Origin: Candidatus Staskawiczbacteria bacterium
GTDB lineage: Bacteria > Patescibacteriota > Minisyncoccia > Minisyncoccales > Staskawiczbacteraceae
Direction of reading: 5' to 3'
Assembly: GCA_903928565.1 (NCBI GenBank)
Contig: CAIYRH010000018.1
Location: 10,693-74,692 of the forward strand
Length of the DNA: 64,000 nucleotides
A program made the translations under genes and the position numbers. This document shows positions 13,583-38,961 of the stretch, one piece after another. Position 1 is the stretch's first letter. Every line of letters starts with the position of its first letter. The notes under the pieces are model-generated. The model ran no database searches. It worked only from the letters and a program-made list of their open reading frames with translations, and was not told the origin of the DNA.

Positions 13583-14443
13583 TTATTCTTTAATTATATT
13601 TTCACCGTCAGAAACAAATACAACGTCGCCGTTTTTATCTGTTCTGAATATATTTATACCAAAATTTGCCAATCTATTCAATGCCTCAGGCGTTGGGTGC
13701 CCATAAGAATTCTTTCCAACATCCACAACGGCAAACGCGGGTTTAACATTTTCTAAAAATAAATCTGAGGTTGAATATTTACTTCCGTGGTGAGCAACTT
13801 TCAAAACTGTAGCTAAAATATTCTCTCCGCTGTTTACTAATTGCTTTTCAGCTTTTGTGTCTATGTCGCCGGTAAATAGAAATGAATCTTTTCCATAAAT
13901 TATTTTTGCCACAACGCACGAATCGTTAGAACTACTTTTCATTTCTTGCCCCTCCATGCTTTTTAAGGGATACATTGTATTTATTAAAACATTTCCGGCC
14001 TTAATTTCTTGGCCGGCCTGGGCAATTAAAATTTTAGCACCCATTTTCTTTTGTTCATCTAAAACTTTAAGCCACATAGTATATTCGGGAGCCGATTTCT
14101 TAATACCGCTCCACAAAATATAGCCTACTTTGTATTTTTGCAGGGCAAATAGAAGGCCTTGCATGTGATCGGATTCTGGGTGAGTTAAAATTACCAAATC
14201 AATTGTTTTGTCCCACACAGGCATATTCACAGACAGTTTAGCCAAAAGTGCAGAACTTGGCCCGCCATCAATTAAAATTTGGTGGCCTTCTGGGGTTTCA
14301 ATAAAAGCCGAATCTCCTTGCCCAACATTTAAAAAGTCGACCTTCAAATTATGCGGAAAATATAACGCAAAAACATTTTGCCACGCATAAATATTTAGAA
14401 TTATTAAAATTCCGGCAGTAAATATTTTTGTTTTCTTCTGCAT
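13583..14443 (-). CDS. ComEC/Rec2-like metallo-beta-lactamase domain protein
   Basis: LNVGQGDSAFIETPEGHQILIDGGP, HPESDHMQG, VAHHGSKYS motifs; N-terminal signal/TM. Confidence 0.6.
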   Translation of the reverse strand: MQKKTKIFTAGILIILNIYAWQNVFALYFPHNLKVDFLNVGQGDSAFIETPEGHQILIDGGPSSALLAKLSVNMPVWDKTIDLVILTHPESDHMQGLLFALQKYKVGYILWSGIKKSAPEYTMWLKVLDEQKKMGAKILIAQAGQEIKAGNVLINTMYPLKSMEGQEMKSSSNDSCVVAKIIYGKDSFLFTGDIDTKAEKQLVNSGENILATVLKVAHHGSKYSTSDLFLENVKPAFAVVDVGKNSYGHPTPEALNRLANFGINIFRTDKNGDVVFVSDGENIIKE

Positions 14444-16984: not shown

Positions 16985-19213
16985 TTACTTATATGCCTTC
17001 ATGCTCAAGGAATTTAGCACCACGCTTACTGAAGAAAATGCCATGGCCCCCGCGGCAATTGAAGGGCTTAACAGCCAACCAGTAAATGGGAACAAAACGC
17101 CCGCCGCCACAGGAATTCCAACTATATTATAAAAGAAAGCCCAAAAAAGTCCCTGTTTTATTTTTCTTAAAGTGTAAACACTCAAATGAATTGCCTTAAC
17201 AACATCGCGCAAATCATTTTTAATTAAAACAATTTCTCCGGTTTCCATTGCAACATCGGTGCCACTACCCAAAGCAATTCCCAAATTTGCTTGAGCTAAG
17301 GCGGGCGCATCGTTTATGCCATCACCCACCATAGCCACGACTCTTCGAGTCGTGGAATTTCGAATTTCGAAATTCGAATTTCGAATTTGCTCGCCAGATT
17401 GCAATTTTTTAATAATCTGTGCTTTATCTTGCGGGAGGATCTCTGCAAATACATAATCTATACCAAGCTGGCGAGCTATGGCTTGGCCCACTCTTTTATT
17501 GTCTCCTGTAATTATTGCAACTTCTTTTCCCATTTTATGCAGGGTTTCAATGGCCTCTTTTGAATGTTCTTTTAAAACATCTGCCACTGCAATAATTCCA
17601 ATGATTTTTCCGCCCTGCGCTAAAATCATAGCCGTTTTGCCCTGATCTTCAAGCGTTGTCATTTTGTCTTCTATTAAATCAACCGGAATTTTATTATCGT
17701 TCATTAACATTCTTGTTCCTAATAAAATTTGCTTTCCCTCCAATAGAGCCTTAACGCCCCTGCCCGGAATTGCTTCAAACGCTTCAACTACGCTTAGCAC
17801 AAGCCCTTCTTTTTTTGCTTTGTTTACAATTGCTTGAGCCAAGGGGTGTTCTGAATTTTTTTCTACACTTGCTGCAATCTGCAAAATTTCGTTTTGAATT
17901 TCGGATTTCGTACTTCGAGTTTCCGTGATTGAAATTATGTCAGTCACGGTTGGTTCGCCCCTAGTAAGGGTGCCTGTTTTATCAAAAACAACCATATTAA
18001 CATCTTTTGCCATTTGCAGGGCTTTACTGGACTTTATTAAAATTCCATTTTTAGCGGCCAAGCCCGTGCCCATCATAACGGCGGTTGGCGTTGCTAACCC
18101 CAAGGCACACGGGCAAGCTATTATAAGCACCGCAACAAACACCGAAAGAGCTACAGAAATTTGGTGCACTATTAAAAACCAAGCCAACCCCGAAATTAAA
18201 GCAATTCCAATTACAACCGGCACAAAATAAAATGAAACTTTATCTGCCAAAAGCTGAATTGGTGCTTTGCTTCCCATGGCCTCTTCAACAATTTTAATTA
18301 TTTGGCTAATCATTGTGTCTTTGCCAACGCGAGTTGCCCGAAATTGCAAAACGCCAGTTTTATTTATGGTGGCACCAATAACTTCGTCACCTTTTTTCTT
18401 TTCAACCGGCATTGATTCGCCGGTAATTGCCTGTTCGTCAACACCCGAATAACCGCTTACAACAACACCATCAACCGGAATTTTTTGCCCTGGTTTTACT
18501 AAAATAATATCGCCAACCATAACTGCCGAGATTTGTATTTCCACTTCTTCGTTTCGGATTTCAGATTTCGAAATTCGAATTTCCCGCAACACTGTTGCGG
18601 TCTTTGGTGCCAAGCCAATTAATTTTTTTATGGCAGAAGAAGTTTTACCTTTTGTAACTGCCTCTAAATATTTCCCTAAAGAAATAAATATTAAAATAAA
18701 GATTGCACTTTCAAAATAAACCTCACCACCTAAAAACATTTCTACGATACTATATATAAATGCCACGGCAGTACCAATAAAAATTAGCGAATCCATATTG
18801 GGCGCTAATTTTACAAGTTTTTTAAACCCCGAAGTCCAAATATCGAAACAAATTAGAATAACCGCCAAGGCCAAAATTGCTTGCACATATTTGGGAATAA
18901 AATCCATTTTTCCTGCCACCATTGCAATAATTATGGGCAAGCCAAAAATAAGAGATAAAATAAATCTAGTTTTTAGTCTTTTAGATTCGTCTTTAACCAC
19001 GCCCTCAACAACTTTATATCCCGCACTTTTAATAGCATTTTTTATGTTGTCTTCTTTAATAATTGTTTCGTCAAAATCAATGTAAGCTTTTTCAGAAGCC
19101 AAATTAACGGTGGCTGAATTAATGCCCTTTTCTTTTTTTAGACTATATTCAATAACCGAAGCGCAAGAAGCGCAAGTCATTCCACCAATATTTAAGACAA
19201 TTTTTTTATCCAT
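16985..19213 (-). CDS. copA: Copper-translocating P1B-type ATPase
   Basis: N-terminal [14 protein letters not shown] motif, [17 protein letters not shown]; carries three in-frame heptamer-repeat inserts. Confidence 0.85.
17345..17390. repeat. (TTCGAAT)n-type heptamer repeat inserted in-frame in copA (encodes [10 protein letters not shown])
   Basis: gaatttcgaatttcgaaattcgaatttcgaattt. Confidence 0.65.
17885..17925. repeat. Degenerate heptamer repeat in copA (encodes [13 protein letters not shown])
   Basis: aatttcgttttgaatttcggatttcgtacttcgagtttccg. Confidence 0.5.
18547..18586. repeat. Heptamer repeat in copA (encodes [14 protein letters not shown]) ending in tttcccgc
   Basis: cgtttcggatttcagatttcgaaattcgaatttcccg. 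Confidence 0.6.
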
Positions 19214-19214
19214 C

Positions 19215-19433
19215 TTATTTTTTTACTTTCTTTCCGGCAGGCGAGTTTAACTCTTTTAAAATTTTAGCCAATTTTAAATCATAGGCTTTGCACACTTCTC
19301 CTATTTTTAAATCGTTTACTTCAAATTCGGCCATTGGGCAAGACAAACACGGCACGCCATTTTTTGCCAAAACTTCTTCACCGCCCTTCTTCTCAATTAT
19401 TTTTGCTAAAGTTGTATCTTTTGTAATTTTCAT
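19215..19433 (-). CDS. Small DUF1858-like redox/disulfide-motif protein
   Basis: 72 aa with CLSCPMA motif; placed between HMA membrane protein and copA. Confidence 0.45.
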
Positions 19434-19437
19434 AAAA

Positions 19438-20832
19438 TTAATTAATTACTTCTATTGTTCCCCTTATCATTCCCATTGTACAAGAAAACCCAAACGTACC
19501 CGCTGTTTGTGGAGTAAATTCTTTTACCGAAAGTTGCCCCGGAGTTAAATCAATTGCTCCATCAAATAATTTGCCAGAAATAATTGCCCCATTACATCCA
19601 AGCGAACTACCTGCCGTAATTTCCCACCTAACAGGAACTCCCGCCTTAACCTTAAAATAATTTGGGCTGTCTTCAGAACCAGTGGCAGTCATTGCAAGAA
19701 CCTGTTTTCCATTTACAATTGGTGCCAGGCCATTTTGCTTTGCCTCGCCAGAGCCTTGCGCGGAGGCGGGCGTTTGTGTCACTGTGTTATTATTGCCCGT
19801 AAATCCCAAAACCGTTGCTTGGTTAGACATATTAAACAGCGCAAAAAAGATTACTAAAAATCCGGCAACTTTAGAAAACCTTTGCGCCAAATGTGGTTTT
19901 GAAGATAATTTAACACTTGAAAGCCCAATAAAAAATAATACGGGAATTGTTCCAAGTGCGAACGCGCCCATTATTAATGCTCCGCTTACCATATTGCCCG
20001 AAAGCAATGCCAAACTTTGGACTGTTATTGTAAAACCACAAGGCAAAAAGAATGTTAACGCTCCCATAATAAATGGAGCATATTTTGTTTTGAAATTATT
20101 TTCATTGGCAATTCCGCGTGTAACTGACTTTGGTGCCGAAAGCTGAAATTTTCTGAAAGCTTTTACTCCAAGCATTTGCAGGCCTAAAGCAATCATTAAA
20201 ATAGAGATTGCAACAACTAAGTAACCCGTAATTTGCGGAGAAATTTGAAGCCGGCTACCAATTAACCCCAAAACGCCACCCAATACAGTGTAAGAGATTA
20301 ATCTTCCGGCGTTAAACATTAAATGTGGTTGAAGTTTTTTTGATGTGCTTTGATCTTGTGCATACAAACTGTTCCATTGTTTAGACATTGATAAAACAAT
20401 TCCGCCAACTAGCGCGGCGCAAGAAGACAGCCCAGCCAATAAACCAAAACCTAAAAAGGTTAAAACAGAAGAGCTTGAGCTTAAACTTAAAAAATTAGCA
20501 ATGCCTAATTTGTCTAAAACCAAAAAGGCAATAATTATAAAAATTGCAATATTAAAAGCCACTAACGTTGGATTGGCCCTTCGACTTCGCTCAGGGTCTT
20601 CGACCTTCTTTTCTTTTATATTTCCGTCTGAAAACGTGTAGTTGTCTTCTTTAAATATTCTATTTAATCTTTCTGGGTTTGGGCGGTCACCGTCGAATTC
20701 AATTGTAACTTCGCCTTTTGTAGTTGAAGCATTAACTGCTTTAATATTTTGTAAATCTAAAAGTTTTTTCTCAACTAAAATTTCGCACGAAGCGCAATGC
20801 ATTCCAACAACTTTGTATATATGTTCTGTCAT
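19438..20832 (-). CDS. HMA-domain membrane protein of CcdA/DsbD transmembrane family with C-terminal cupredoxin-like domain
   Basis: N-terminal GMHCASCE HMA motif; TM helices with conserved Cys (LSSCAAL, LPCGF); C-terminal beta-rich domain; contains GC-rich in-frame insert. Confidence 0.5.
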   Translation of the reverse strand: MTEHIYKVVGMHCASCEILVEKKLLDLQNIKAVNASTTKGEVTIEFDGDRPNPERLNRIFKEDNYTFSDGNIKEKKVEDPERSRRANPTLVAFNIAIFIIIAFLVLDKLGIANFLSLSSSSSVLTFLGFGLLAGLSSCAALVGGIVLSMSKQWNSLYAQDQSTSKKLQPHLMFNAGRLISYTVLGGVLGLIGSRLQISPQITGYLVVAISILMIALGLQMLGVKAFRKFQLSAPKSVTRGIANENNFKTKYAPFIMGALTFFLPCGFTITVQSLALLSGNMVSGALIMGAFALGTIPVLFFIGLSSVKLSSKPHLAQRFSKVAGFLVIFFALFNMSNQATVLGFTGNNNTVTQTPASAQGSGEAKQNGLAPIVNGKQVLAMTATGSEDSPNYFKVKAGVPVRWEITAGSSLGCNGAIISGKLFDGAIDLTPGQLSVKEFTPQTAGTFGFSCTMGMIRGTIEVIN

Positions 20833-20924
20833 ATTATTAAGTGAGCCAAATAAATTTTTGGAGGAGGGGCAATCGCCTTTAGGACATTCCCCCGACGAGC
20901 AAAAATTTAATTTGGCGAGCGAAG

Positions 20925-21200
20925 TTATTTGTTAAATAATTTAGTTACTTTTAAAATTTCATCGGTCATTTCTTGTTTTCTTTTACTGTTTTTAGAAGCC
21001 ATTGCATTTTTAAAACAAGAATTTAAATGGCTTTCCATTAGCATCTCGTGTGCCGAGCGCAACAAACCTATAACAGCCAAATTTTGCTGCATAATATCTA
21101 CGCAATATTCGCCCTCTTCAATCATTTTAATAATTCCCAAAAGAGAACCTTGGGCTTTTTTAAAACTAACCAACGCTTTTTGCCTATTTTCACTTAACAT
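20925..21200 (-). CDS. csoR: CsoR/RcnR-family metal-sensing repressor
   Basis: 91 aa; C...H...C ligand arrangement (YCVDI..., HEMLMESHLNSC). Confidence 0.6.
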   Translation of the reverse strand: MLSENRQKALVSFKKAQGSLLGIIKMIEEGEYCVDIMQQNLAVIGLLRSAHEMLMESHLNSCFKNAMASKNSKRKQEMTDEILKVTKLFNK

Positions 21201-21360
21201 AGTGTTTATTAATTTAATTAGTATTTTACCCCTACCTAGGGTATAGGTCTATGATATCAAAAGCAAGCCCCCGTGTCAATACCCCACCCCATTTCATATA
21301 ATAAAAAATCCCCGACAACAAGCGCAAAATTGAACTTGCTATCGGGGCATCAACGCCTGC

Positions 21361-22071
21361 TTACGCAGGCGGGATAACGGAGGAAACAACGGAACGGGAA
21401 CGCAGGTAGTCACTAGCATAGCCGGGGCTGTCCCAGTAGACAACGACCTCGCCACGGTCGACGACGAAGTACACGCCCGGCACGTAGCCACTGGAGCTGC
21501 GCGAGCCCGTACACAAGGTGGCATTTTTGACGTCCAAAAAATGACGGGTCGTCAGAAAATACCCAAGTTCAGGGAGCAGGCGCTCCAAAAGCGTGGCGCC
21601 CTTATGGCTTTCCGTCTTCAGCACGTTGGCCGACTTATTGGCATTTTCCTCGTCTGCCTCGACTGTCCGACGAAAACCGACAACGTACGAGCCGTCGCGG
21701 TTTGGGTCGCGGTCGTTGGTGGACACGTCTTTGTCGAGGTCATCAATATCGGTGCCGACCTTCAAACCAAACGGCTTCAGCACCTCGCGGAGCGTGGCAA
21801 CCACCTTATTGCAGGTGACGCCCTTAACCGCAGGCACAAGCCAGAGATTCGGGTTTTCCGCGACGCCGAGCTTTTTACTGACCTCGGCATACTCAGCAGA
21901 CATACCGAGCGCCGCATAGGTTATTTGCCAGTTAATATCGGGCACATTGCCGAATACAAACTGTTGCAGCACCTCGGCGAAAGCCTCTGGCTCCCGCTTT
22001 CCGTCGAGCACCAGCTTGTTAGCACTGGCTGCTAGTTTCCATAGACGTTCAAACACATTGTCATTGCTCAT
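21361..22071 (-). CDS. Hypothetical protein on a high-GC (~58%) island
   Basis: Start at MSNDNV with AAGGAAA RBS; strong GC contrast to flanks; terminator-like hairpin at 21305-21345. Confidence 0.5.
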   Translation of the reverse strand: MSNDNVFERLWKLAASANKLVLDGKREPEAFAEVLQQFVFGNVPDINWQITYAALGMSAEYAEVSKKLGVAENPNLWLVPAVKGVTCNKVVATLREVLKPFGLKVGTDIDDLDKDVSTNDRDPNRDGSYVVGFRRTVEADEENANKSANVLKTESHKGATLLERLLPELGYFLTTRHFLDVKNATLCTGSRSSSGYVPGVYFVVDRGEVVVYWDSPGYASDYLRSRSVVSSVIPPA

Positions 22072-22207
22072 GACAGTTTCCTTTCTTATAAGCACGATGA
22101 AGCAATTGCCCAGTTTGGTAGCACCAAACCAGTAAAACAACTACTATTGTCAACGAGCCTACTACCGTCTTATTACCACAAAAAAACAACGCTGTCAAGC
22201 ATTATTT

Positions 22208-23332
22208 TTACTTAATAATTCCGCCGCCGAGGACTTGGTTACCTTTGTAAAAAACGGCGGATTGGCCTTGGGCTAGGGCTTTGCCGGATTTTTTAAAAAC
22301 TAATTTACCATCTTTATATAAAGTTGCTTTTTGCAAAGGGGCTCTATAGCGAGTGCGCGCGTCAACCAAAACCGGAAAACTTGTTGGCCTATTTATCCAA
22401 TTAATATTTACAATTTTGGCTGTTTTGGTGGCTAAATCTTTTTCTTTACCAACATATATTATATTTTTCTTTAAATCTTTTTTAACAATAAAATATGGCC
22501 CATGCCCATCTGTTATGTTTAAGCCGTGGCGTTGGCCAATTGTATAATAATATACGCCATCATGCATTCCGATGACTTGGTCAGCGGAGTGTCCTGAGCG
22601 AGCAAAGCGAGTCGAAGGATTCCACAAAATTATTTTACCTATTTTTGGTTTTATATACATTTTTAAAAATGCCTTCATATCAAACTGCCCCACAAAGCAA
22701 ACCCCTTGGCTGTCTTTCTTTTCGGCGTTGTCTAATTTAAATTTCTTAGCTAATTTTCTAACTTCGGGTTTTACTAAATTCCCCACCGGAAAAATTATTT
22801 TATCTAACTGATTTTTTTTAATTTCATACAAAAAATACGTCTGATCTTTATTTGCATCGTGGGCAGTTTGTAGTTTGTAGTTTGTAGTTTGTAGTTTTTT
22901 ATTTTTAGATTTATTTCGAATTTCGAATTTCGAATTTCGAATTTCCCGCTTTATGCGGGCGTAGTGTCCTGTTGCCACAAAATCAAAACCCTCTTTCATT
23001 GCCCTATCAAAAAAATAACCAAACTTTATTATTTTATTACACATAACGTCGGGGTTTGGAGTAATCCCCTTTTTATATGAGTCAATCATATACTTGCCCA
23101 CCTGAGTCTCATATTCTTTTGAATAATCCCAGGTTAGAAAAGGAATTTTAAGTTTGGCACATGCCCGCATTGCATCTTGCCTGTCTGTTTTCCAAATGCA
23201 TTCTTTGCCTAAAATTTCCGGCGCCCACTGACGCATATAAATTCCAACTACGCTAAAACCAGCCTTTTTCAGCAAAGCCGCTGAAACACTAGAATCTACG
23301 CCCCCAGACATTGCACAGGCGACCTTAACCAT
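22208..23332 (-). CDS. mnmA: tRNA 2-thiouridine(34) synthase
   Basis: PP-loop AMSGGVDSS; length and C-terminal domain; contains heptamer repeats and a GC-rich insert. Confidence 0.85.
   Translation of the reverse strand: MVKVACAMSGGVDSSVSAALLKKAGFSVVGIYMRQWAPEILGKECIWKTDRQDAMRACAKLKIPFLTWDYSKEYETQVGKYMIDSYKKGITPNPDVMCNKIIKFGYFFDRAMKEGFDFVATGHYARIKREIRNSKFEIRNKSKNKKLQTTNYKLQTAHDANKDQTYFLYEIKKNQLDKIIFPVGNLVKPEVRKLAKKFKLDNAEKKDSQGVCFVGQFDMKAFLKMYIKPKIGKIILWNPSTRFARSGHSADQVIGMHDGVYYYTIGQRHGLNITDGHGPYFIVKKDLKKNIIYVGKEKDLATKTAKIVNINWINRPTSFPVLVDARTRYRAPLQKATLYKDGKLVFKKSGKALAQGQSAVFYKGNQVLGGGIIK
22865..22943. repeat. Composite heptamer element (AGTTTGT)x4.7 - spacer - (TTCGAAT)x4 - TCCCGC, in-frame in mnmA
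   Basis: agtttgtagtttgtagtttgtagtttgtag...ttcgaatttcgaatttcgaatttcgaatttcccgc. Confidence 0.7.
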
Positions 23333-27934: not shown

Positions 27935-30900
27935 CTATTTATTAAGCTCATTAAGCTTATTTCTTGTATTTGACCCCACCATTCCATATTGAAGTGATTT
28001 TGCTGTAAGAATATTATATTTTAATTGAAAGGCCTTAACTGATTTTAATGTTGTTGGGCCAAAACTTTTAGTTGAGTTTATTGATTGCGAAAAGAGATTT
28101 AATTTCTTTAAAATATTTTGCAACAAAATAACTTCGCTGTCGTAGCTACCAAATCTTAAATCTTTAGTTAATAATTGAGGCGTAGTTGGATTTTGCCCTC
28201 TTTGAGCCAATATTTGCTGTATAAGAATTTGCAATTGAAGAATTTGTGCTTTTAGAGATTCTATGGTTGGGGTGTTGTTTGGTGGAATATTTATTGGAGA
28301 TACTGGGGGCGTGGTTACCGATATTGCTGAAAAGTTTGCTAAAATTGTATGGGATTGGGTAACATTACTGAATGTATAGGTTGATCGGGCTCCAACAGAA
28401 ATATTATCTACTAGTACATCTGCAATTTGGTATCCTGTATATGGGGTAATGGTGAAGGTATAGCTTCCTCCTCGCGCGATAGACTGGCTTTGTGGAGTAA
28501 TTGAACCATTAGGGGTTACGTAGACTGAAATTGGATAATATGTTAGCCCTCCGCCACCGGGTGCTCTGGTTACAGTAATTGTGTATGTATTTGTGCTTGA
28601 ATCTTGAGCAGTTACTACAACCGTGATTGTATTAGAACCCACGTTTAGTGGCAATGAATCAGATGGTAAGCCAGATGTAATAGCTATAGGAGTTGAATTA
28701 TTAATGGATATTGTCATAGTTGCACTTGCCTGATTTCGTGTTGGGGTAACTGTTAAATTATTTGTATTGTAATCAACACTTTCGGTATATGAAGTTGTTT
28801 CCGATGAAAACGTTGGAGATAACGTGCCCGCGCTAATGGCAAGATTACTTAGGGTGGCGTCGGCGCTTGCCGGTGTTACAGTTATTGTATATGTTGCTTG
28901 CGAAACACCATCCTGAGCTAAAACAACTAAGGTATCTCCAGTTAATATTGGATCATGTATACCGGTATCTGTCCATGTCTGATTAATTTGACCTTTAGTT
29001 AGATTAGATTCAAAAGTCGCCTTAGATGTATTGTATGGAACATTAATTATTGTTCCCGCATTGCCAACAAGCGAACTAACCGTATAAGTTGATGAACTAA
29101 CTGTATCATTGCTACTTAGAGAAAAATAAGATATATTGCTTGGATTAGACCACCCTGATTGACCATTTGTAAGGGTGAATGTCTTACTACCCGATGAAGC
29201 AGGGGTATATGTAAAAGTAAATGAATTCGCAGAAGCAGCGGGAGTAACCGTTACCGACGAAATACCAGATGAGCCAACTGACGGAGTAAATGTACCGCCA
29301 TCTCCGCCGTCTGAAATTGTTATCGTTTGGTCTCCAATAAATGGCGCACTATTTCCTAAAGTCACAGTAAATGCTGTGCTAGTTTGTGATGCCGATCCAC
29401 TTGAAGGCCCAGAAACAGTATAGCTTGGCTGAGCTAATATTGGAGCAATACGTTTTGCATATTTTACAAATCCACTGTCTGTAGGATGCACATCATTACT
29501 TACATCTGATAAGGTTAATAGAGTTGTTCCATCAACTAATGCCGCATAACTACTACGCGCATTACACACTGTAGCAATTTGTGATCTATAATCTGCCAAA
29601 GTATTTCCATTTGAATTAAGCGGACCAGTAATTTCAGAACCCCTAACAAGAGGAGTTTGACAAATAACACGCGCAGCTGGCAATGCAGAATGTAGACCAT
29701 CTAATAAATTACCGTAAGCCGTACCGAAACTATTTACATTCCAACTATCGCCCCAATCATTTGTGCCAATAGCAAGATATATTGTTGAGGGCGTGTATGA
29801 CACAAGCCGACTTACAAACGCATTCAATAATCCGACCGTATGAGCATCATCGTATAAAGCGCGGTACCCCCACCCCTCTAACATTACACTCTGGCCGTAA
29901 AGATTTCTTAGCAATGGAACATATGCTTGGCTTTCAGGATTAGTTGCATAAGCTCCGGCTGATATACTATCACCATATACAAGCACACGATTTGGTGTGT
30001 CGTTAGGTGGCAACACATTAAATGAAGCAGTAGCAGGATATGTGATACTATTAATAAATGAACCACTCACAGTATTCGTGCCCCCATCGCTCTGCATTCC
30101 CGTAATTATATCTACAGTACGCGTAGTACCCGCAGAACCAAGATTAACCGTAAAACTTTGAGATGCACTAGTAAACGATAAAGGCGACTGGTCTACTCCG
30201 TTTATTTGCACGCCCAAAGTTGCATAATAATTTGGATATAAAGTTGAATTACCGGTAACGGTAATACTTGCTGCGTTAGTTGTAAAAACAAATCGAGCAA
30301 ATGTTGATTGCTTGGGTGCGTTAACATTATCATACCCATTATCCCACAAATCTGCTTGCTGAACATTATATGTGATATCATTCGTCACTATCGTTAATAT
30401 ATTTGAGGTGGCGGTACTTGATGTGGCATCGGTGTAGACGACTTTATAATCATAACTTGTTGAAGGGCTTAGTCCCGTGTCTGTTACCGGGCTTGTAGTT
30501 GCGCCACTTACATTTGACCATGTGTTTGCACTGTGTGCACTGCGTTGCAATTGCGCTGTTATTGGGGCAGTACCACCAGATGCGACCGTCCATGACACAG
30601 TAGCAGAAGTAGATGTTTGAGATACCGAAGAAAGAACACCAGCCGACAAACTATTATCTGCAGTTACCGTTAATATATTTGAGGTGGCGGTACTTGATGC
30701 TGTATCGGTATAGACAACTTTGTAATCATAACTTGTTGAAGGGCTCAATCCCGTGTCTGTTGCCGGGCTTGTAGTTGCGCCACTTACATTTGACCACGTG
30801 TTTGCGCTGTGTGCACTTCGTTGCAATTGCGCTGTTATGGGGGCAGTACCGCCAGATCCGCTTGTCCAGGAAACGGTGGCAGAAGTAGATGTTTGAGATA

Positions 30901-31615
30901 CCGAAGAAAGAACACCAGCAACCAAAGGATTATTATCGGTCACTAAAAAATTATCAATATGCACTTGAGTTGTCGCTGTTGCTGGCTGATCAAAATACAT
31001 GCAAGGAACACCAATAGAACCAATAATGTTTCCTCCGGTTGCGGTTACATCTATTACAGAAGACGCATCCCAATATACTTTAATATTATTACCATTCATT
31101 ACCAATTTCATAGCATGAGTCTGACCCGCAGCAAGTCCGGATAAACTATAAGCTCCAATTTGAGTTCCAATAGTTGAATATAATTTAATCATCGGACCGG
31201 GTGACACAGTAGCAAAATAGCCAAGGGTACTCGCACCACAACGTCCGCCAATCCCAGTATTGCCACTCACCACGCCATCCGCTAAATATACATCAGCCGA
31301 AACCGTATAGTTATATGTGGGTGGCGAGAAAGAACTATCGTATATGTCCATACTACTTAAAAGATAAATCCTGCCGGCACTTGATATGGTTACGTCTCCC
31401 CAATAAATAGCATTATTCTTGACCCAAGTATTGCCATCAGCGGTATGATTTTGTAATAAAGTACCGGTAGTATCTGTAAATGTATCGTTAACATATGTTG
31501 TAGCGCTAGCTTCATGCACAGAGCTAAAAAATAAAAAACAAGCAAAAAATAAAATTGCAACAGCTTTATAATTAAGAAACATTTTCTTCCAAATTTTATT
31601 TTCCATTACTACCAT
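27935..31615 (-). CDS. Large secreted multidomain protein: two FN3 repeats, SGNH/GDSL hydrolase domain, cadherin-like beta-sandwich, C-terminal peptidoglycan-binding domain
   Basis: Signal peptide; GDSIS and DxxH SGNH motifs; repeated FN3 block; C-terminal PG_binding_1-like helices. Confidence 0.6.
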   Translation of the reverse strand: MVVMENKIWKKMFLNYKAVAILFFACFLFFSSVHEASATTYVNDTFTDTTGTLLQNHTADGNTWVKNNAIYWGDVTISSAGRIYLLSSMDIYDSSFSPPTYNYTVSADVYLADGVVSGNTGIGGRCGASTLGYFATVSPGPMIKLYSTIGTQIGAYSLSGLAAGQTHAMKLVMNGNNIKVYWDASSVIDVTATGGNIIGSIGVPCMYFDQPATATTQVHIDNFLVTDNNPLVAGVLSSVSQTSTSATVSWTSGSGGTAPITAQLQRSAHSANTWSNVSGATTSPATDTGLSPSTSYDYKVVYTDTASSTATSNILTVTADNSLSAGVLSSVSQTSTSATVSWTVASGGTAPITAQLQRSAHSANTWSNVSGATTSPVTDTGLSPSTSYDYKVVYTDATSSTATSNILTIVTNDITYNVQQADLWDNGYDNVNAPKQSTFARFVFTTNAASITVTGNSTLYPNYYATLGVQINGVDQSPLSFTSASQSFTVNLGSAGTTRTVDIITGMQSDGGTNTVSGSFINSITYPATASFNVLPPNDTPNRVLVYGDSISAGAYATNPESQAYVPLLRNLYGQSVMLEGWGYRALYDDAHTVGLLNAFVSRLVSYTPSTIYLAIGTNDWGDSWNVNSFGTAYGNLLDGLHSALPAARVICQTPLVRGSEITGPLNSNGNTLADYRSQIATVCNARSSYAALVDGTTLLTLSDVSNDVHPTDSGFVKYAKRIAPILAQPSYTVSGPSSGSASQTSTAFTVTLGNSAPFIGDQTITISDGGDGGTFTPSVGSSGISSVTVTPAASANSFTFTYTPASSGSKTFTLTNGQSGWSNPSNISYFSLSSNDTVSSSTYTVSSLVGNAGTIINVPYNTSKATFESNLTKGQINQTWTDTGIHDPILTGDTLVVLAQDGVSQATYTITVTPASADATLSNLAISAGTLSPTFSSETTSYTESVDYNTNNLTVTPTRNQASATMTISINNSTPIAITSGLPSDSLPLNVGSNTITVVVTAQDSSTNTYTITVTRAPGGGGLTYYPISVYVTPNGSITPQSQSIARGGSYTFTITPYTGYQIADVLVDNISVGARSTYTFSNVTQSHTILANFSAISVTTPPVSPINIPPNNTPTIESLKAQILQLQILIQQILAQRGQNPTTPQLLTKDLRFGSYDSEVILLQNILKKLNLFSQSINSTKSFGPTTLKSVKAFQLKYNILTAKSLQYGMVGSNTRNKLNELNK
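30402..30933. repeat. Two near-identical 266-267-bp tandem DNA repeats (FN3 domain duplication)
   Basis: cgttaatatatttgaggtggcggtacttgatg recurs at 30402 and 30668. Confidence 0.7.
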
Positions 31616-35310: not shown

Positions 35311-37821
35311 ATGGAAATTTATGTGACGAAGAGAGATGGCACCAAGGAGCTTTTTGATGCCAATAGAATAAACAAATCTATTGAAAGAGCTTGCCTTGGA
35401 CTAGAAAACCCAATTAGCAAAGTTGTGCAAATTGCTTCGGAAACCCAGTTAATGCTTTATGACGGCATTACAACCGAGGAATTGGATTTTGCTACAATAA
35501 ACGCTGCTTTGCAAAACATTCAAGAAGACACTTCTTATGACAAGGTGGCCACTCGCCTATTGCTAAAAACTGTATATAAACGAATTTTTGGCGATTATAA
35601 TGCCGACGAAACTGTTTTAGAGGGAAAATACAAAAAATATTTTTCACAGCACATTAAAAACGGAGTTAAGTCAGAAATTTTAGACAAAAGAATGACAGAT
35701 TGTTTTAATTTGGAAGAATTAGCTGGCGCGTTAGATATCAAAAAAGACGAACTTTTTAAGTATGCGGGAATTTCAACTTTGTTTGACCGCTATTCAATGA
35801 AAGATACGGACCAAAAACCAATTGAAACTCCTCAATATTTTTTTATGCGAGTTGCTATGGGTTTGTCTTATAACGAAAAAAATCCCACAGAACAGGCAAT
35901 TAAGTTTTACAACAAAATGTCTAACTTAGAATATGTTGCCGGAGGTTCTACAAATATTGGAGCAGGAACTACAAGACCGGCCTTATCAAATTGTTTTTTG
36001 CTGGAAATTCAAGACGACATTGAGAATATTGCCAAATCTGTGTCTGACGTTATGAAAATTTCTAAAGCAACCGGAGGTATTGGAGCTTCAATTACAAAAT
36101 TAAGAGCCAGCGGATCACCACTTTCTTCAAATAATACAACTTCATCTGGCCCAACACCGTTTGCAAAAATTATTGATACAGCTATTAGGGCAATTCAAAG
36201 GGGCGGGAAGAAAAAAGGAGCATTGTGTTTTTACATGGAAAATTGGCACATTGATTTTCCGGACTTTTTAATGTGGAGACATAATGCCGGTGACGACTAT
36301 TTAAGAATGAGAACTGCCGATACCGCTGTTTTCATTTCTGATGAATTTATGCAAAGAGTAAAAGATAAAGAAAGCTGGTATATGTTTGACCCTAAGGAAA
36401 CGCCGGATTTAAACGAGTTGTATGGGCAGAAATTTTCTAAACGCTATAAAGAGTACATTGCAGACGCCGAAGCCGGAAAACTGAGAACTTTTACGAAAGT
36501 TCCCGCAGAAGAACAATACCGGCAAATTTTGGTTATGTTGCAAGCTACCTCTCACCCGTGGCTAACATGGAAAGACCCAATTAATTTGCGAGCGTTAAAT
36601 AATAATACGGGCACAATTCACATGTCTAACCTTTGCACAGAAATTTGCTTGCCCCAAGACAAAGACAACATTGCCGTTTGCAATTTGGCCTCTATTAATA
36701 TTGCAGCGCACATTAACAACAAAGAAATTAAATGGAAACAGCTTGAGGAAACTACAAGGTTGGCTGTAAGACAGCTAGACAACTTAATAGACATTAATTT
36801 ATTGCCCATTCCCGAGGCAATAAAATCGGACAAAGAAAACCGAGCCATTGGTTTGGGAGTTATGGGTTTTTCTGAAGCTGTAGAATTGCTGAGATTAGGT
36901 TATGAAGATGAAAAAACTTTTGAAATGGCTGACAAAATTTTTGAGTTTATAAGTTATGTTGCAATTGATGAAAGCGCAAATTTGGCAAAAGAGCGCGGAA
37001 GCTATAAAAATTTCGAAGGGTCTGGGTGGGCAAAAGGCCTGGTGCCATTTGATACTATTGAAAATGTAGAAAATTCTAGAGGAGAAAAATTAGATTTAGA
37101 CAAAACAAGCCACGCAAAAGAACTTAATATTGATTGGACCAGTTTAAGAAAAAAAGTTAAGAAAGGAATGAGGAATGCTACGTTAATGGCGGTCGCCCCA
37201 AATGCAAACATTGGCTTGTTGGCGGGCACCACACCTGGGATTGACCCAAGATTTGCACAAGTATTTTCTAGAAATAAAATATCTGGAAAATATTTAGACA
37301 TAAACCACAACCTAGTTAACGACTTAAAAGAAATTAACATTTGGGAGGAAGTAAAAAACGAAATAATTGAAAAACAGGGCGACATTTTAAGCATTGAAAA
37401 AATTCCGCAAGAATTGAAAATAAGATATAAGTCGGCATTTACTACTTCGCCGTATGCGTTTATTGAAATTGCCGCACGCGCGCAAAAATGGGTTGACCAG
37501 GCTTTGTCACGAAATATGTATTTAGAAACAAGAATTACAGAAGAATTAATGGATATTTATAACATGGCTTGGCGCAAAGGTTTGAAAACAACCTATTATT
37601 TGCACATGAAACCACGCCACACTGCCGAACAAAGCACCGTGACCATAAATAAACGAGAAAAAATGGGCAGAGTTGGTTTTTCCGCCTTTGCTAAAGTTTC
37701 GACGGACAAGGGTGCAGTTGGCACCGAAGAAACAGAGCAAAGCTCGGCAGAATATGAAGCAATAATGGCAAAAATAAACGAAGACCCGCAAGGGAATTTT
37801 GTTTGTGACTCTTGCCAGTAA
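35311..37821 (+). CDS. nrdA: Ribonucleoside-diphosphate reductase class Ia alpha subunit with ATP-cone
   Basis: N-terminal ATP-cone, NLCTEI active site, C-terminal CDSCQ. Confidence 0.9.
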   Translation: MEIYVTKRDGTKELFDANRINKSIERACLGLENPISKVVQIASETQLMLYDGITTEELDFATINAALQNIQEDTSYDKVATRLLLKTVYKRIFGDYNADETVLEGKYKKYFSQHIKNGVKSEILDKRMTDCFNLEELAGALDIKKDELFKYAGISTLFDRYSMKDTDQKPIETPQYFFMRVAMGLSYNEKNPTEQAIKFYNKMSNLEYVAGGSTNIGAGTTRPALSNCFLLEIQDDIENIAKSVSDVMKISKATGGIGASITKLRASGSPLSSNNTTSSGPTPFAKIIDTAIRAIQRGGKKKGALCFYMENWHIDFPDFLMWRHNAGDDYLRMRTADTAVFISDEFMQRVKDKESWYMFDPKETPDLNELYGQKFSKRYKEYIADAEAGKLRTFTKVPAEEQYRQILVMLQATSHPWLTWKDPINLRALNNNTGTIHMSNLCTEICLPQDKDNIAVCNLASINIAAHINNKEIKWKQLEETTRLAVRQLDNLIDINLLPIPEAIKSDKENRAIGLGVMGFSEAVELLRLGYEDEKTFEMADKIFEFISYVAIDESANLAKERGSYKNFEGSGWAKGLVPFDTIENVENSRGEKLDLDKTSHAKELNIDWTSLRKKVKKGMRNATLMAVAPNANIGLLAGTTPGIDPRFAQVFSRNKISGKYLDINHNLVNDLKEINIWEEVKNEIIEKQGDILSIEKIPQELKIRYKSAFTTSPYAFIEIAARAQKWVDQALSRNMYLETRITEELMDIYNMAWRKGLKTTYYLHMKPRHTAEQSTVTINKREKMGRVGFSAFAKVSTDKGAVGTEETEQSSAEYEAIMAKINEDPQGNFVCDSCQ

Positions 37822-37834
37822 GTTAAATAAAATC

Positions 37835-37928
37835 CGAAGCACGAAATCCGAAATCCGAAACAAATCATAATTTTCAAATACTAAAAATTCAAAACAAGTT
37901 TCGAATTTCGAAATTCGAATTTCGAGTT
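37835..37928. repeat. Intergenic heptamer repeats (CGAAATC)n and (TTCGAAT)n in inverted arrangement between nrdA and nrdB
   Basis: aatccgaaatccgaaac ... gtttcgaatttcgaaattcgaatttcgag. Confidence 0.6.
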
Positions 37929-37938
37929 TCAAATCAAT

Positions 37939-38961
37939 ATGGCACTTATAGGAAAAGCATCACCAAAAGATTATAACATTCACCCTTCTTTGTACCCCTG
38001 GGCACGAGAACTTTACGACCAAGCAATTGCAAACACTTGGTACCCGCACGAAATTCCGCTAAAAGAAGATTTAGAAGATTGGGCAACAATGACCAACGAC
38101 GAAAAATATGCGGTGGAATTTGTTATGTCGTTTTTTAATCCAGCGGAGTTAGTTGTTAACAGAGTTTTGGCACTGGGAGTTTACCCATATTTAAAGTCGG
38201 CTGAATGCCATTTATATTTGGCAAAACAAATGTGGGAAGAAGCAAACCATTGTGTTGCATTTGAATATGTTTTAGAAACTTTACCACTAGACAGAACAAA
38301 AATATATGAAACACACATAACCACTCCGTCAATGAAGGCGAAGGAAGATTACATAAATGATTATGTTGCCCGAATGACCGAAGACACTTATGACGTTACA
38401 ACAGTTGAGGGCAAAAAAGATTTTATTAGAAATCTTGTGGCATACAATATTGTTATGGAAGGCGTTTGGTTTTATTCTGGGTTTATGGTTATGCTTTCTT
38501 TCAGACAAAGAAATAAGCTGAGAAATTTGGCTTCTATGATAAATTGGGTTTTACGCGACGAAAGTTTGCACTTAAAATTTGGAATAAATTTGGTTTTAAC
38601 TTTGCTTGAAGAAAACCCTGAAATTGTTTCTGCTGAATTTGCCGAGGAAATTAAAAATATAATAATTAAGGGAGTTGATTTGGAAACAGAATATAACAAA
38701 AATTTATTTCCACGTGGAATTCTTGGGTTAAACGCCGACTATGTTAACCAATATGTGCAATATGTTGCCGACAGGAGAATGGAAGAATTGGGTTTTCAGC
38801 CACATTATAACGCAACAAACCCAGCTAAATGGATGAGCACGGCAACTGACGTTTATGAGTTGGTTAACTTTTTTGAGGCACAAAACACCAACTACGAGGT
38901 TAATTCAAAATCACATAACCTGCCTACCGGACAGGCAGGCACAGAGAAACCAAAAGAATAA
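37939..38961 (+). CDS. nrdB: Ribonucleotide reductase class Ia beta subunit
   Basis: Di-iron ligands EEANHC, DESLH; 340 aa. Confidence 0.9.
   Translation: MALIGKASPKDYNIHPSLYPWARELYDQAIANTWYPHEIPLKEDLEDWATMTNDEKYAVEFVMSFFNPAELVVNRVLALGVYPYLKSAECHLYLAKQMWEEANHCVAFEYVLETLPLDRTKIYETHITTPSMKAKEDYINDYVARMTEDTYDVTTVEGKKDFIRNLVAYNIVMEGVWFYSGFMVMLSFRQRNKLRNLASMINWVLRDESLHLKFGINLVLTLLEENPEIVSAEFAEEIKNIIIKGVDLETEYNKNLFPRGILGLNADYVNQYVQYVADRRMEELGFQPHYNATNPAKWMSTATDVYELVNFFEAQNTNYEVNSKSHNLPTGQAGTEKPKE

Follow-up and report, generated by a model that had tools for sequence, protein, structure and literature searches.

Hairpin-associated heptamer repeat arrays within conserved genes of a Staskawiczbacteria genome

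In the window, which is the whole 64,000-nt stretch of DNA analysed here from Candidatus Staskawiczbacteria, an ultra-small CPR bacterium, we detected GAAATTC/TTCGAAT-type heptamer arrays at three copA sites and one mnmA site (17345-22943) using TRF and a period-7 scan. We give roughly even odds (a probability of about 0.5) to the reading that these arrays are hairpin-associated repeat DNA, which slippage, template switching or copying spreads or turns over and of which selection leaves the tolerated versions; the mechanism of spread and turnover is one that we infer. They consist of 4-5 copies (~32 nt) of A/T-rich heptanucleotides, namely GAAATTC, variants of it by one or two bases, and ACAAACT. 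Repeats of this class, specific to period 7 and ~30-34 nt long, are common in Staskawiczbacteria/Paceibacteria and also in ten or more other phyla. The features concerned are as follows.

354-383, - strand: degenerate AGTTTGT array, 78-93% matches (TRF, pattern search, translation), of the ACAAACT type; encodes ATNYPLQTTNS in a large surface-protein-like ORF running off the window start
16985-19213, - strand: copA, P1B copper ATPase, 742 aa (Pfam E1-E2_ATPase, Hydrolase, HMA), with three array inserts
18548-18583, - strand: copA insert 1, residues 211-222, 9-residue gap versus 3j09
17891-17923, - strand: copA insert 2, residues 431-441, 7-residue gap versus 3j09
17342-17395, - strand: copA insert 3, residues 607-624, 16-residue gap versus 3j09
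17355-17388: GAATTTC x4.9 array of copA insert 3 (TRF/period-7 scan)
18552-18583 and 17892-17917: degenerate arrays in copA (TRF/period-7 scan)
18584-18600: perfect 7-bp hairpin CCGCAAC-ACT-GTTGCGG abutting copA insert 1, including the "TCCCGC tail"
17923-17949: hairpin CCGTGATTGA-N7-TCAGTCACGG in the copA CDS, immediately upstream (sense) of insert 2
17335-17355: perfect 9-bp hairpin CCACGACTC-TTC-GAGTCGTGG abutting copA insert 3
22208-23332, - strand: mnmA, tRNA 2-thiouridylase, 374 aa (Pfam; PDB alignments 9hlv, 2hma, 2der; AF2)
22859-22959, - strand: mnmA composite insert, folding as a hairpin on the + strand
22865-22897: AGTTTGT x4.7, perfect, in mnmA (TRF/period-7 scan)
22913-22945: ATTTCGA x4.7, perfect, in mnmA (TRF/period-7 scan)
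37830-37929: intergenic hairpin between the nrdA stop codon (37819-37821) and the nrdB ATG (37939)
37830-37861 and 37898-37929: its inverted 32-nt arms in the nrdA-nrdB spacer

Pfam identified the genes as CopA, MnmA, NrdA and NrdB. That the repeats are real was supported by TRF, the period-7 scan, shuffles and an exact 19-mer at three places. With up to three mismatches, (TTCGAAT)2 matched the window 35 times against 15.3 expected (none of 100 shuffles reached 35), and with up to two mismatches nearly every match fell within five loci. The 19-mer ATTTCGAAATTCGAATTTC, which includes the same irregular unit in each array, occurred exactly three times (17364, 18565 and 37905), with 0 expected. 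The AGTTTGT pattern showed no excess over chance across the window (18 matches versus 14.5), and only its two named loci, in mnmA and at 354-383, are real. A sequence-only reading of this DNA had placed heptamer units at three positions in copA, an array in the first surface-protein gene (352-386) and an inverted arrangement in the nrdA-nrdB spacer (37835-37928); the three copA arrays, the degenerate array at 354-383 and the inverted arms bear this out, and our translations gave the same peptides.

The window thus holds one intergenic hairpin (nrdA-nrdB) and five intragenic copies. Every intragenic insert is in frame and free of stop codons, which agrees with the earlier remark that copy numbers keep the frame and that a one-unit slip would shift it. 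AGTTTGT gives a TAG stop on one strand, and both intragenic window arrays of this type occur only as sense ACAAACT. Alignment with solved structures (for CopA, those of A. fulgidus CopA, 3j09 and 7r0g) puts the excess at about 9, 7 and 16 residues for the three CopA sites; in MnmA it is 16 residues, and another insert of ~12 residues lies apart from these. When mapped onto these structures and homologues, and onto an AF2 model for MnmA, all inserts fell in loops or beta-turns, one of them in the loop directly before the CopA GDGxND motif, as had been proposed. At all four copA/mnmA sites, most orthologues lack the insert.

Insert 1 of copA (sense units GAAATTC GAATTTC GAAATCT GAAATCC) is missing from ~110 of 120 homologues, and related heptad peptides occur at this site in P0170, P0176, P0194 and P0196. 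The degenerate array of insert 2 (GAAACTC GAAGTAC GAAATCC GAAATTC) is apparently older; orthologous arrays are found in the related loci L239, L122, L124 and L240. At site 3, most homologues read QSEGK-IVAMVGDG. The window has (AAATTCG)n there versus (AAATTGG)n in the subclade of L121, L122 and L124, encoding EIRNSKF and EIGNWKL, respectively, so the peptide is not conserved.

The intragenic arrays adjoin the base of a short G+C-rich hairpin, with a junction in which CGG is followed directly by GAAAT. The CCGCAAC/GTTGCGG hairpin of insert 1 also occurs in L122, where the array is present and a loop base differs, and is missing from the array-free L121 and L236. At the place of the insert 3 hairpin, L121, L122 and L124 carry CCCGCC-NNN-GGCGGG. 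For the insert 2 hairpin, 81.8% of cells were paired over 10 orthologues versus 27-45% with partners slid; both sides had changed in five pairs, and the covariation score was 0.345 versus 0.22 (1 of 500 shuffles). The flanking hairpins are retained through compensatory synonymous changes, which counts against the repeat-DNA reading and hints at a function or a recognition step. In low-GC loci, hairpins were present at 15 of 248 array flanks versus 1.2% of random positions. TCCCGC, which had been taken as a common terminus, stands after two arrays (18583 and 22945) and forms an arm of mini hairpins that differ by site (CCCGC/GCGGG, CCGCAAC/GTTGCGG) and abut the arrays.

The mnmA insert encodes REIRNSKFEIRNKSKNKKLQTTNYK (residues 129-153, DNA 22874-22948). 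On the sense strand, its arrays read GAAATTC (22913-22945) and ACAAACT (22865-22897), separated by an A-rich 15-nt spacer. A clamp is formed by GTGGGC (22859-22864) pairing with CCCGC (22945-22949), and an alternative mini hairpin, CCCGC-TTTAT-GCGGG, lies at 22945-22959. The + strand folds into a single long hairpin (-25.7 kcal/mol, z -4.5). The two arrays, which had been described as a composite of (AGTTTGT)n, spacer, (TTCGAAT)n and TCCCGC, are better read as the arms of one imperfect hairpin with + strand G.U pairs and a GUGGG/CCCGC closure than as a fixed element. Both unit types do recur together in mnmA, and nowhere else in the window. Many close homologues have an empty loop here (GHYAQIK-NGK-LLKA). 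In the AF2 model (mean pLDDT 88.9), the insert forms the tip of a beta-hairpin with strands at residues 125-132 and 149-156; pLDDT is ~54 over residues 131-150 and <50 at 136-141 and 145-147, and the remainder is confident. This low confidence counts in favour of hairpin-associated repeat DNA.

In the nrdA-nrdB spacer, the arms are of the AAATCCG (37830-37861) and TTTCGAA (37898-37929) types, 32 nt each, 75% complementary and 36 nt apart. The predicted fold is stronger on the - strand (-34.3 kcal/mol, z -4.8) than on the + strand (-18.7). The hairpin ends ~5-10 nt ahead of the nrdB ATG, and no terminator-like site was found in it.

Beyond the window, at least 120 loci carried (TTCGAAT)3; they came from Acidobacteriota, Verrucomicrobiota, Planctomycetota, Chloroflexota, Bacteroidota, Myxococcota, Nitrospirota, Patescibacteria and further groups. 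In 846 kb of these seed-chosen loci, there were 158 period-7 arrays of other units versus at most 13 for each of the periods 4-11, and in 823 kb of MnmA loci chosen without regard to repeats, 35 versus at most 4 for other periods. Array lengths showed a second mode at 30-35 nt with a steep fall past 36 nt. Inverted pairs accounted for 67 of 108 neighbouring arrays in the (TTCGAAT)3 loci and formed near-perfect hairpins; in other phyla, such pairs are frequent and make long intergenic hairpins. In CPR-type loci, 35 of 50 arrays lay within long ORFs, with the A-rich strand as sense in 32 of the 35. A special status of TTCGAAT itself was rejected, as in viral contigs it formed arrays at 3 loci versus 4-16 for control heptamers, which were thus about as frequent or more so. 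Arrays averaged 37% G+C where the loci were 62% G+C, and co-occurring units of one locus were alike (32 at distance 1 versus 2.2 expected). Pure local slippage fails to explain this G+C difference, the typical ~32-nt length, the closely related units per genome and the exact irregular 19-mer in three arrays.

In related genomes, the orthologous sites carry other heptamers (AAATTGG, AAATCCC, AAATTCC), and between orthologous arrays the entire unit and the number of copies differ; they are therefore not a fixed-sequence transposon. We found neither terminal inverted repeats nor target duplications, and no transposase. The suggestion of a defined mini-element rather than independent slippage thus stands as far as the shared 19-mer and the alike units per locus, and falls on the differing heptamers and the missing element hallmarks. 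A GAAATT-like host sequence ("seed") is present at empty sites of the closest relatives; at wider MnmA empty sites it was found in just 3 of 29, versus a 4.3% background.

A non-autonomous mobile element (MITE/REPIN/RPE-like), in which a trans-acting transposase moves or copies the hairpin and array as a unit, appears rather unlikely. The candidate enzyme would be a RAYT-like HUH/Y1 protein recognising the flanking hairpin, and the intragenic copies would be survivors. Such an element is consistent with one unit at five loci in 64 kb, the 19-mer in three arrays, array starts exactly at the hairpin foot, and A/T-rich units that are related within GC-rich genomes. It also fits one Deltaproteobacteria MAG, in which arrays flank segments of ~150-2000 nt and two copy pairs share 50-70 nt past the array. 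However, the arrays have no conserved terminus, the flanking hairpins vary by site and are partly made of host codons, the loops between inverted arms vary among copies, and arrays are kept at orthologous sites with different units. The related contig L124 has a 251-aa Y1_Tnp gene whose best NCBIfam match is REP-associated tyrosine transposase, but the match reaches 41 bits against a family cut-off of 80, the gene is flanked by G+C-rich palindromes rather than heptamer arrays, and no Y1 gene was found in the window.

We consider it improbable that the hairpin and array constitute a selected cis-acting element, that is, an RNA/DNA structure or protein-binding site with functional intragenic copies. 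The roles considered were intercistronic mRNA stabilisation, mRNA processing, translational coupling, and a replication or chromosome-organisation signal. The narrow array length (~32 nt), the compensatory changes and the proximity of the window hairpin to the nrdB ATG would suit such a role. At a Chloroflexia locus (L005), intergenic hairpins immediately precede a Shine-Dalgarno sequence with its ATG, and MacGregor (2015, PMC4679880) proposed that TAACTGA repeats ahead of start codons act in translation. Against this, the unit is not conserved across orthologous sites, arrays are altogether missing from most orthologues, neither an Rfam family match nor a terminator-like feature was found, and location in protein loops is a prediction of tolerance, not of regulation.

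Contingency loci, at which one-unit slips would switch copA or mnmA on and off, are very unlikely. A unit length that 3 does not divide, the two perfect mnmA arrays with 4.7 copies each, and the varying copy number among orthologues would suit such switching. However, array positions are intergenic or in the middle of housekeeping-enzyme genes, degenerate arrays such as that at copA site 2 persist, all observed alleles are in frame, and no array differed in copy number in two contig pairs of 99.94-99.97% identity. An assembly or sequencing artefact can practically be dismissed: short tandem repeats can be mis-assembled and the window MnmA protein is recorded from one contig only, but orthologous arrays keep codon position and frame in many independent samples and assemblies, in which insert-bearing proteins recur identically (P0207 on 23 contigs), and arrays are present on megabase-scale contigs and in the complete genome CP012155.

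By analogy, the window arrays resemble Rickettsia palindromic elements (RPE), reportedly described by Ogata et al. in 2000, and the cyanobacterial STRR heptanucleotide repeats that Mazel is said to have described in 1990. RPEs are likewise short hairpin-forming repeats in frame in unrelated conserved genes, patchy among orthologues, with an extra peptide (predicted here) at fold-compatible positions. They differ in host (Rickettsia versus a CPR bacterium) and in being ~150 bp long with conserved sequence and peptide families, whereas the window has ~32-nt arrays of a 7-nt unit that varies by site and genome, with no conserved peptide. A summary of RPEs is given in PMC10969869. Heptamers were the most abundant long SSR class according to Mrazek 2007, as cited in PMC4679880; examples are the TAACTGA repeats of Beggiatoaceae (PMC4679880) and the Xanthomonas GGGAATC repeats, some of them inverted pairs (PMC4692102). 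Known bacterial heptanucleotide repeats and the window class have in common tandem 7-nt units in a low copy number, genome-wide dispersal, period-7 specificity, occasional inverted pairs and sporadic phylogenetic spread. The published repeats are mainly intergenic, at ORF ends or in hypothetical ORFs, whereas most window arrays lie in the middle of conserved enzyme genes, at the base of conserved hairpins. Both the lineage (Patescibacteria) and the units are new, and the heptanucleotide-repeat papers compared describe neither the typical 30-34-nt length nor the wide range of phyla.

The E. coli K1 neuO gene has a coding-region heptanucleotide phase-variation switch, a single locus near the 5' end of a gene for surface modification, where switching is proven. 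There, as here, a 7-nt unit within an ORF encodes a heptad peptide, so that full-length protein is made only at right-frame copy numbers; unlike neuO, the window arrays occupy many loci, in housekeeping genes and spacers, with no length polymorphism seen. REP/REPIN sequences, which avoid coding sequence as REPINs, also form inverted doublets as long intergenic hairpins in genome-specific sequence families. REP arms carry a GTAG or CGTC tag and are not tandem heptamers, in contrast to the untagged heptamer arrays of the window, where no linked RAYT gene was found. REP/REPIN-RAYT systems are covered in PMC3116915 and PMC3733652. Palindromic amphipathic repeat coding elements (PARCELs), 25-residue domains found as arrays in uncharacterised ORFs, share repeat-coding DNA with dyad symmetry and sporadic occurrence across distant microbes, but have no 7-nt unit and are not short inserts in conserved enzymes (PMC2996958).

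Under the hairpin-associated repeat DNA reading, replication slippage or template switching at hairpins would generate arrays, with copying or conversion between arrays contributing. The product would be selfish or neutral repeat DNA, not a functional protein module, and intragenic arrays would be translated into 7-25 extra, poorly ordered residues. An array may be inherited vertically for some time, then undergo whole-array unit replacement and copy-number change, and finally decay and be lost. As a side effect, slippage by a single unit within any perfect array would change the reading frame. Intragenic arrays would persist because only certain versions survive: those with a net length in multiples of 3, a sense orientation without stop codons, the A-rich, hydrophilic-coding strand as sense, and a location in loops or beta-turns. 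In-frame heptamer runs in surface loops of conserved CPR enzymes may thus illustrate how repeats persist without destroying genes.

Reading positions 17200-23100, together with TRF and our own period-7 scan, bore out the heptamer arrays named in the sequence-only reading, and the peptides it had quoted were present in the translations. Peptides encoded by the inserts include EIRNSKFEIRNK and KLQTTNYK. The observation itself was confirmed, and its interpretation was supported in part. MnmA homologues assign the window to Candidatus Staskawiczbacteria, within the Paceibacteria of the CPR. The features concerned are listed below.

Heptamer arrays and the ORFs around them. Lines reading "array" come from TRF and the period-7 scan, and lines reading "ORF" from Pfam.
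354-383: degenerate AGTTTGT array
16985-19213, - strand: P1B copper ATPase ORF (copA)
17355-17388: GAATTTC x4.9 array in copA (site 3)
17892-17917: degenerate array in copA (site 2)
18552-18583: degenerate array in copA (site 1)
22208-23332, - strand: MnmA ORF
22865-22897: perfect AGTTTGT x4.7 array in mnmA
22913-22945: perfect ATTTCGA x4.7 array in mnmA
35311-37821, + strand: NrdA ORF
37830-37861 and 37898-37929: inverted arms of 32 nt each in the nrdA-nrdB spacer
37939-38961, + strand: NrdB ORF

Copy number per window locus was 4.4-5.1 by TRF and the period-7 scan, as in the heptanucleotide simple-sequence repeats (STRR/LSSR); unlike that mostly intergenic class, five of the six array loci are intragenic. 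TTCGAAT-type matches numbered 35 in the window against 15.3 expected, a count reached in none of 100 shuffles. AGTTTGT showed no window-wide enrichment and was clear only at its two named loci (354-383 and 22865-22897). A 19-mer with one flipped unit, ATTTCGAAATTCGAATTTC, was exactly common to three window arrays; the control count for it (0 of 205 loci) is biased, because the seeded loci had been picked for three uninterrupted units.

We then located the inserts against solved structures. CopA carries ~9 extra residues past the VIRD-equivalent position of the actuator domain (site 1), ~7 where the nucleotide-binding domain begins (site 2) and ~16 immediately ahead of the GDGxND motif (site 3). 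MnmA has 16 extra residues in the beta-hairpin after GHYAR and a separate second insert of ~12 residues. The AF2 model of MnmA (mean pLDDT 88.9) shows the insert lengthening the beta-hairpin (strands 125-132 and 149-156), with low confidence at the insert tip and at the second insert. The AF2 model of CopA was unusable (pLDDT 64, pTM 0.38), so the CopA mapping rests on PDB sequence alignments. The proposal that the inserts land in loops agreed with this mapping, which put the MnmA insert in a beta-hairpin by both alignment and AF2. Sites 1 and 3 were empty in ~110 of 120 CopA homologues, and related heptad peptides stood at exactly the same CopA sites in a minority of the 120. The MnmA turn was often minimal (GHYAQIK-NGK-LLKA) among 120 homologues; in the 82 loci with DNA, the segment was minimal in 25 and held inserts of many kinds in roughly 30. 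The coding arrays lie in frame in conserved ORFs and are absent from most orthologues, as RPE-like or MITE insertions are. An exact protein look-up had no record of the window's MnmA. The ACAAACT (KLQTTNYK) unit recurred in distant MnmA orthologues (loci L128 and L184, proteins P0024 and P0120), and other lineages had a second array hot spot near the MnmA C-terminal beta-barrel (L134 4162-4192, L184 10982-11011, L185 6558-6584, L166 2193-2220 and L133 1549-1573).

Other features were noticed in the same region. G+C-rich mini-inserts of another, unrelated family occur in A/T-rich genes, at 22577-22621 in mnmA, where the copy is the ~12-residue insert relative to solved structures, and at 20575-20610 in a DsbD-like ORF (19438-20832). 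These encode NPSTRFARSGHSADQ and VEDPERSRRA and share CTGAGCGA...GTCGAAGG, which runs in opposite orientations in the two. A similar TTCGAC...GAGC sequence adjoins a RAYT-like gene in the related contig L124 (13890-13930). Between csoR and mnmA, a 259-aa ORF (21361-22140, - strand) has ~50% G+C against ~37% around it; searches of Pfam, NCBIfam, PADLOC and PHROGs gave it no match, its place in the syntenic contig L236 is without a gene, and it may be a foreign gene. Finally, a 276-nt tandem repeat (30392-30919; 1.9 copies, 91% matches) lies within a 1226-aa ORF (27935-31615).

At the arrays themselves, folding changed how the composite element should be read. On the + strand, the mnmA region forms a single long hairpin in which (AGUUUGU)n pairs with (UUCGAAU)n via G.U wobbles, closed by GUGGG/CCCGC (-25.7 kcal/mol, z -4.5). 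This makes the supposed TCCCGC tail one arm of the clamp, which can alternatively pair locally as CCCGC-TTTAT-GCGGG. The arrays also have no common termini, their flanking hairpins are site-specific, and the claim of a composite mini-element with a TCCCGC tail was not supported. The nrdA-nrdB arms likewise fold into a hairpin on the - strand (-34.3 kcal/mol, z -4.8), an inverted doublet like those of REP/REPIN sequences, and long intergenic hairpins from inverted doublets also occurred at many loci in other phyla. As TTCGAA is palindromic, one TTCGAAT array can fold on itself (-12.6 kcal/mol for five units), and MnmA-loop inserts at 26 loci had a mean fold z of ~-3. This hairpin-forming, palindromic character is shared with RPE-like and MITE elements. 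Better folding of the antisense strand, seen for mnmA, the nrdA-nrdB spacer and one spacer of the related contig L122, failed as a rule, holding for only 17 of 26 MnmA inserts and being reversed in L184; we treated the strand bias as a base-composition effect. Inverted pairing also failed as a rule, with an exact partner for 0 of 27 arrays in unbiased CPR loci.

Furthermore, every coding array adjoins a short perfect hairpin ending in a ...CGG-GAAAT junction.

Short hairpins abutting the coding arrays.
17335-17355: CCACGACTC-TTC-GAGTCGTGG
17923-17949: CCGTGATTGA-N7-TCAGTCACGG
18584-18600: CCGCAAC-ACT-GTTGCGG
22945-22959: CCCGC-N5-GCGGG

Such a G+C mini hairpin was not a universal companion of arrays (6.5% against 9.4% at random positions, all phyla) and was enriched only in low-GC, CPR-type loci.

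We next compared orthologous sites in syntenic contigs (L121, L122, L124 and L236-L243). Site 3 holds (AAATTCG)n in the window and 4-7 units of (AAATTGG)n followed by CCCGCC-NNN-GGCGGG in L121, L122 and L124; it is empty in L236, which reads GAAGGGAAAATTGTGGCA. The orthologous array has thus changed its unit throughout, and its peptide too (EIRNSKF vs EIGNWKL), which argues against a conserved protein function. At site 2, orthologous arrays in partial decay occur in the window, L239, L122, L124 and L240. In L122, L124 and L239 the adjoining hairpin is a perfect one of 10-12 bp, in which synonymous changes come in pairs (GTG/GTC vs GTA/GTT; ACC/TCG vs ACT/TCA). Across ten sequences, 81.8% of its cells were paired, compared with 27-45% when partners were slid, although the T-D...S-V amino-acid pattern by itself favours pairing. 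Both sides had changed in five pairs, and covariation was 0.345 vs 0.22, a value reached by 1 of 500 shuffles of these few and related sequences. Array-free orthologues have a weaker site 2 hairpin. In the array-free copA of L121, a perfect G+C hairpin (GAGGGT-CGG-ACCCTC) lies just past it, where other genomes have the array. The mnmA hairpin showed one compensatory change (CCCGCC/GGCGGG vs CTCGCC/GGCGAG), again among few, related sequences.

Array copy number differed among orthologues at 66-78% protein identity; contig pairs 99.94-99.97% identical differed by SNPs only. Every allele seen among the orthologous arrays compared was in frame. Alignments of filled and empty sites had no target-site duplication; also lacking here were a family consensus and conserved ends in the form of terminal inverted repeats, as in RPE-like or MITE elements.

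To place these arrays more widely, we scanned a genome collection for (TTCGAAT)3, which gave at least 120 loci in many phyla (32-71% G+C). Among the matches listed, other heptamers were plentiful in the same loci (158 arrays; no other period between 4 and 11 exceeded 13), array length had a second mode at 30-35 nt, and 67 of 108 neighbouring arrays were inverted pairs forming near-perfect hairpins. The listed arrays were A/T-rich whatever the genome composition (37% G+C vs 62% in their loci), and their units were close relatives of TTCGAAT (32 at distance 1 vs 2.2 expected). Period 7 also dominated an unbiased sample of 80 metagenome MnmA loci not picked for repeats (35 vs at most 4), the over-representation typical of STRR/LSSR repeats. 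In CPR-type loci, 35 of 50 arrays lay inside long ORFs, the A-rich strand being sense in 32 of the 35. One Chloroflexia MAG locus (L005, 300-6850) packed 18 heptamer arrays into 7 kb, mostly perfect inverted pairs (AATTCTT/AAGAATT, TAGTGGT, ATTTCGA) whose hairpins (-32 to -60 kcal/mol) directly precede a Shine-Dalgarno sequence and ATG; positions 300-333 of the locus form a TAACTGA-like array.

Taken together, the feature is a variant of two known kinds, heptanucleotide repeats and in-frame palindromic inserts, and its mechanism is inferred. Turnover in place would explain why the unit and its copy number vary among orthologous arrays. The shared ATTTCGAAATTCGAATTTC, the likeness of units across sites of one genome and their unlikeness between genomes, and flanks shared in a MAG would fit copying or conversion between sites. 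In that MAG (Deltaproteobacteria HYP3_US_05_8; L024, L027, L050, L063 and L071), inverted TTCGAAT arrays flank segments of ~150-2000 nt, and two pairs of copies have 50-70 nt in common beyond the array, which suggests larger dispersed units with heptamer-array ends. In the near-identical contigs L122 and L123 (different samples, 99.94%), 3 of 13 SNPs, all G/A, fell in one intergenic hairpin of AAATCCN/GGAATTT arrays (14225-14420); relaxed constraint could account for this clustering as an alternative to turnover.

A bolder reading, to which we give a probability of about 0.1, is that the arrays are not passive slippage, and that a hairpin-anchored process of repeat writing or copying adds ~32 nt of heptamer at the base of a short G+C hairpin, in genes and spacers of many phyla. 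Such writing might be done by a polymerase that idles at a stalled hairpin or by an enzyme of the HUH, primase or reverse-transcriptase type, and coding-sequence hairpins kept by compensatory changes would serve as recognition sites.

Other explanations were set aside. Seeding from GAAATT-like host sequence was attractive in the closest relatives but fitted a wider sample poorly (3 of 29). A RAYT as mobilising enzyme seems unlikely: its single homologue, a Y1_Tnp protein of 251 aa in L124 (14010-14765) that carries HUH (NHIHLL) and YIHTNP motifs, matched the REP-associated tyrosine transposase family best in NCBIfam but under the family cut-off, and its gene is flanked by G+C-rich palindromes, not heptamer arrays. 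tblastn found no Y1 gene in the 64-kb window, and the sequences read had no REP GTAG or CGTC tag, the arms being tandem heptamers, not REP sequences. TTCGAAT is not a special, horizontally spread sequence, as it had 3 viral-contig loci, compared with 13 and 14 for heptamers of the same composition, 4 and 4 for G+C-rich ones and 16 for AGTTTGT. An intron, intein or known RNA family was rejected, as Rfam returned only three tRNAs in the window and sub-threshold miRNA-hairpin matches in five related loci. An assembly artefact is contradicted by insert-carrying proteins that recur identically across independent samples and assemblies with reading frames kept throughout (P0170 in JGI and ENA, P0137 in ENA and JGI, P0207 on 23 contigs).

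To our knowledge, no mechanism or function has been accepted for the surplus of heptanucleotide repeats that has been remarked on in bacteria since 1990 and 2007; repeat writing, if true, would explain it. Among the long SSRs of many bacteria, heptamers are known to be the commonest class, and polymerase slippage has been put forward as an explanation (Mrazek 2007, summarised in PMC4679880). In Beggiatoaceae, Cyanobacteria and Bacteroidetes, TAACTGA repeats lie mostly upstream of start codons and occasionally in ORFs (PMC4679880). Inverted pairs occur among the GGGAATC repeats of Xanthomonas, in a paper whose authors remark that heptameric repeats lacked a detailed literature (PMC4692102). Rickettsia palindromic elements (RPEs) set a precedent, being palindromic inserts that sit in frame within conserved genes (PMC10969869). 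The literature searched, which covered some journals only, contained no CPR-specific description of heptamer repeats.

The arrays in conserved enzymes share a characteristic length of roughly 32 nt, adjoin a hairpin and change their unit across the whole array. The locus and its relatives offer a tractable case, in which filled sites can be set against their empty orthologues nucleotide by nucleotide. The inserts in CPR core enzymes, predicted to be translated, resemble the RPEs of Rickettsia, and CPR genomes are very small. Such inserts bear on the annotation, alignment-based phylogeny and structure prediction of CPR proteins, and any perfect array could become a hotspot for frameshifts within a core gene.
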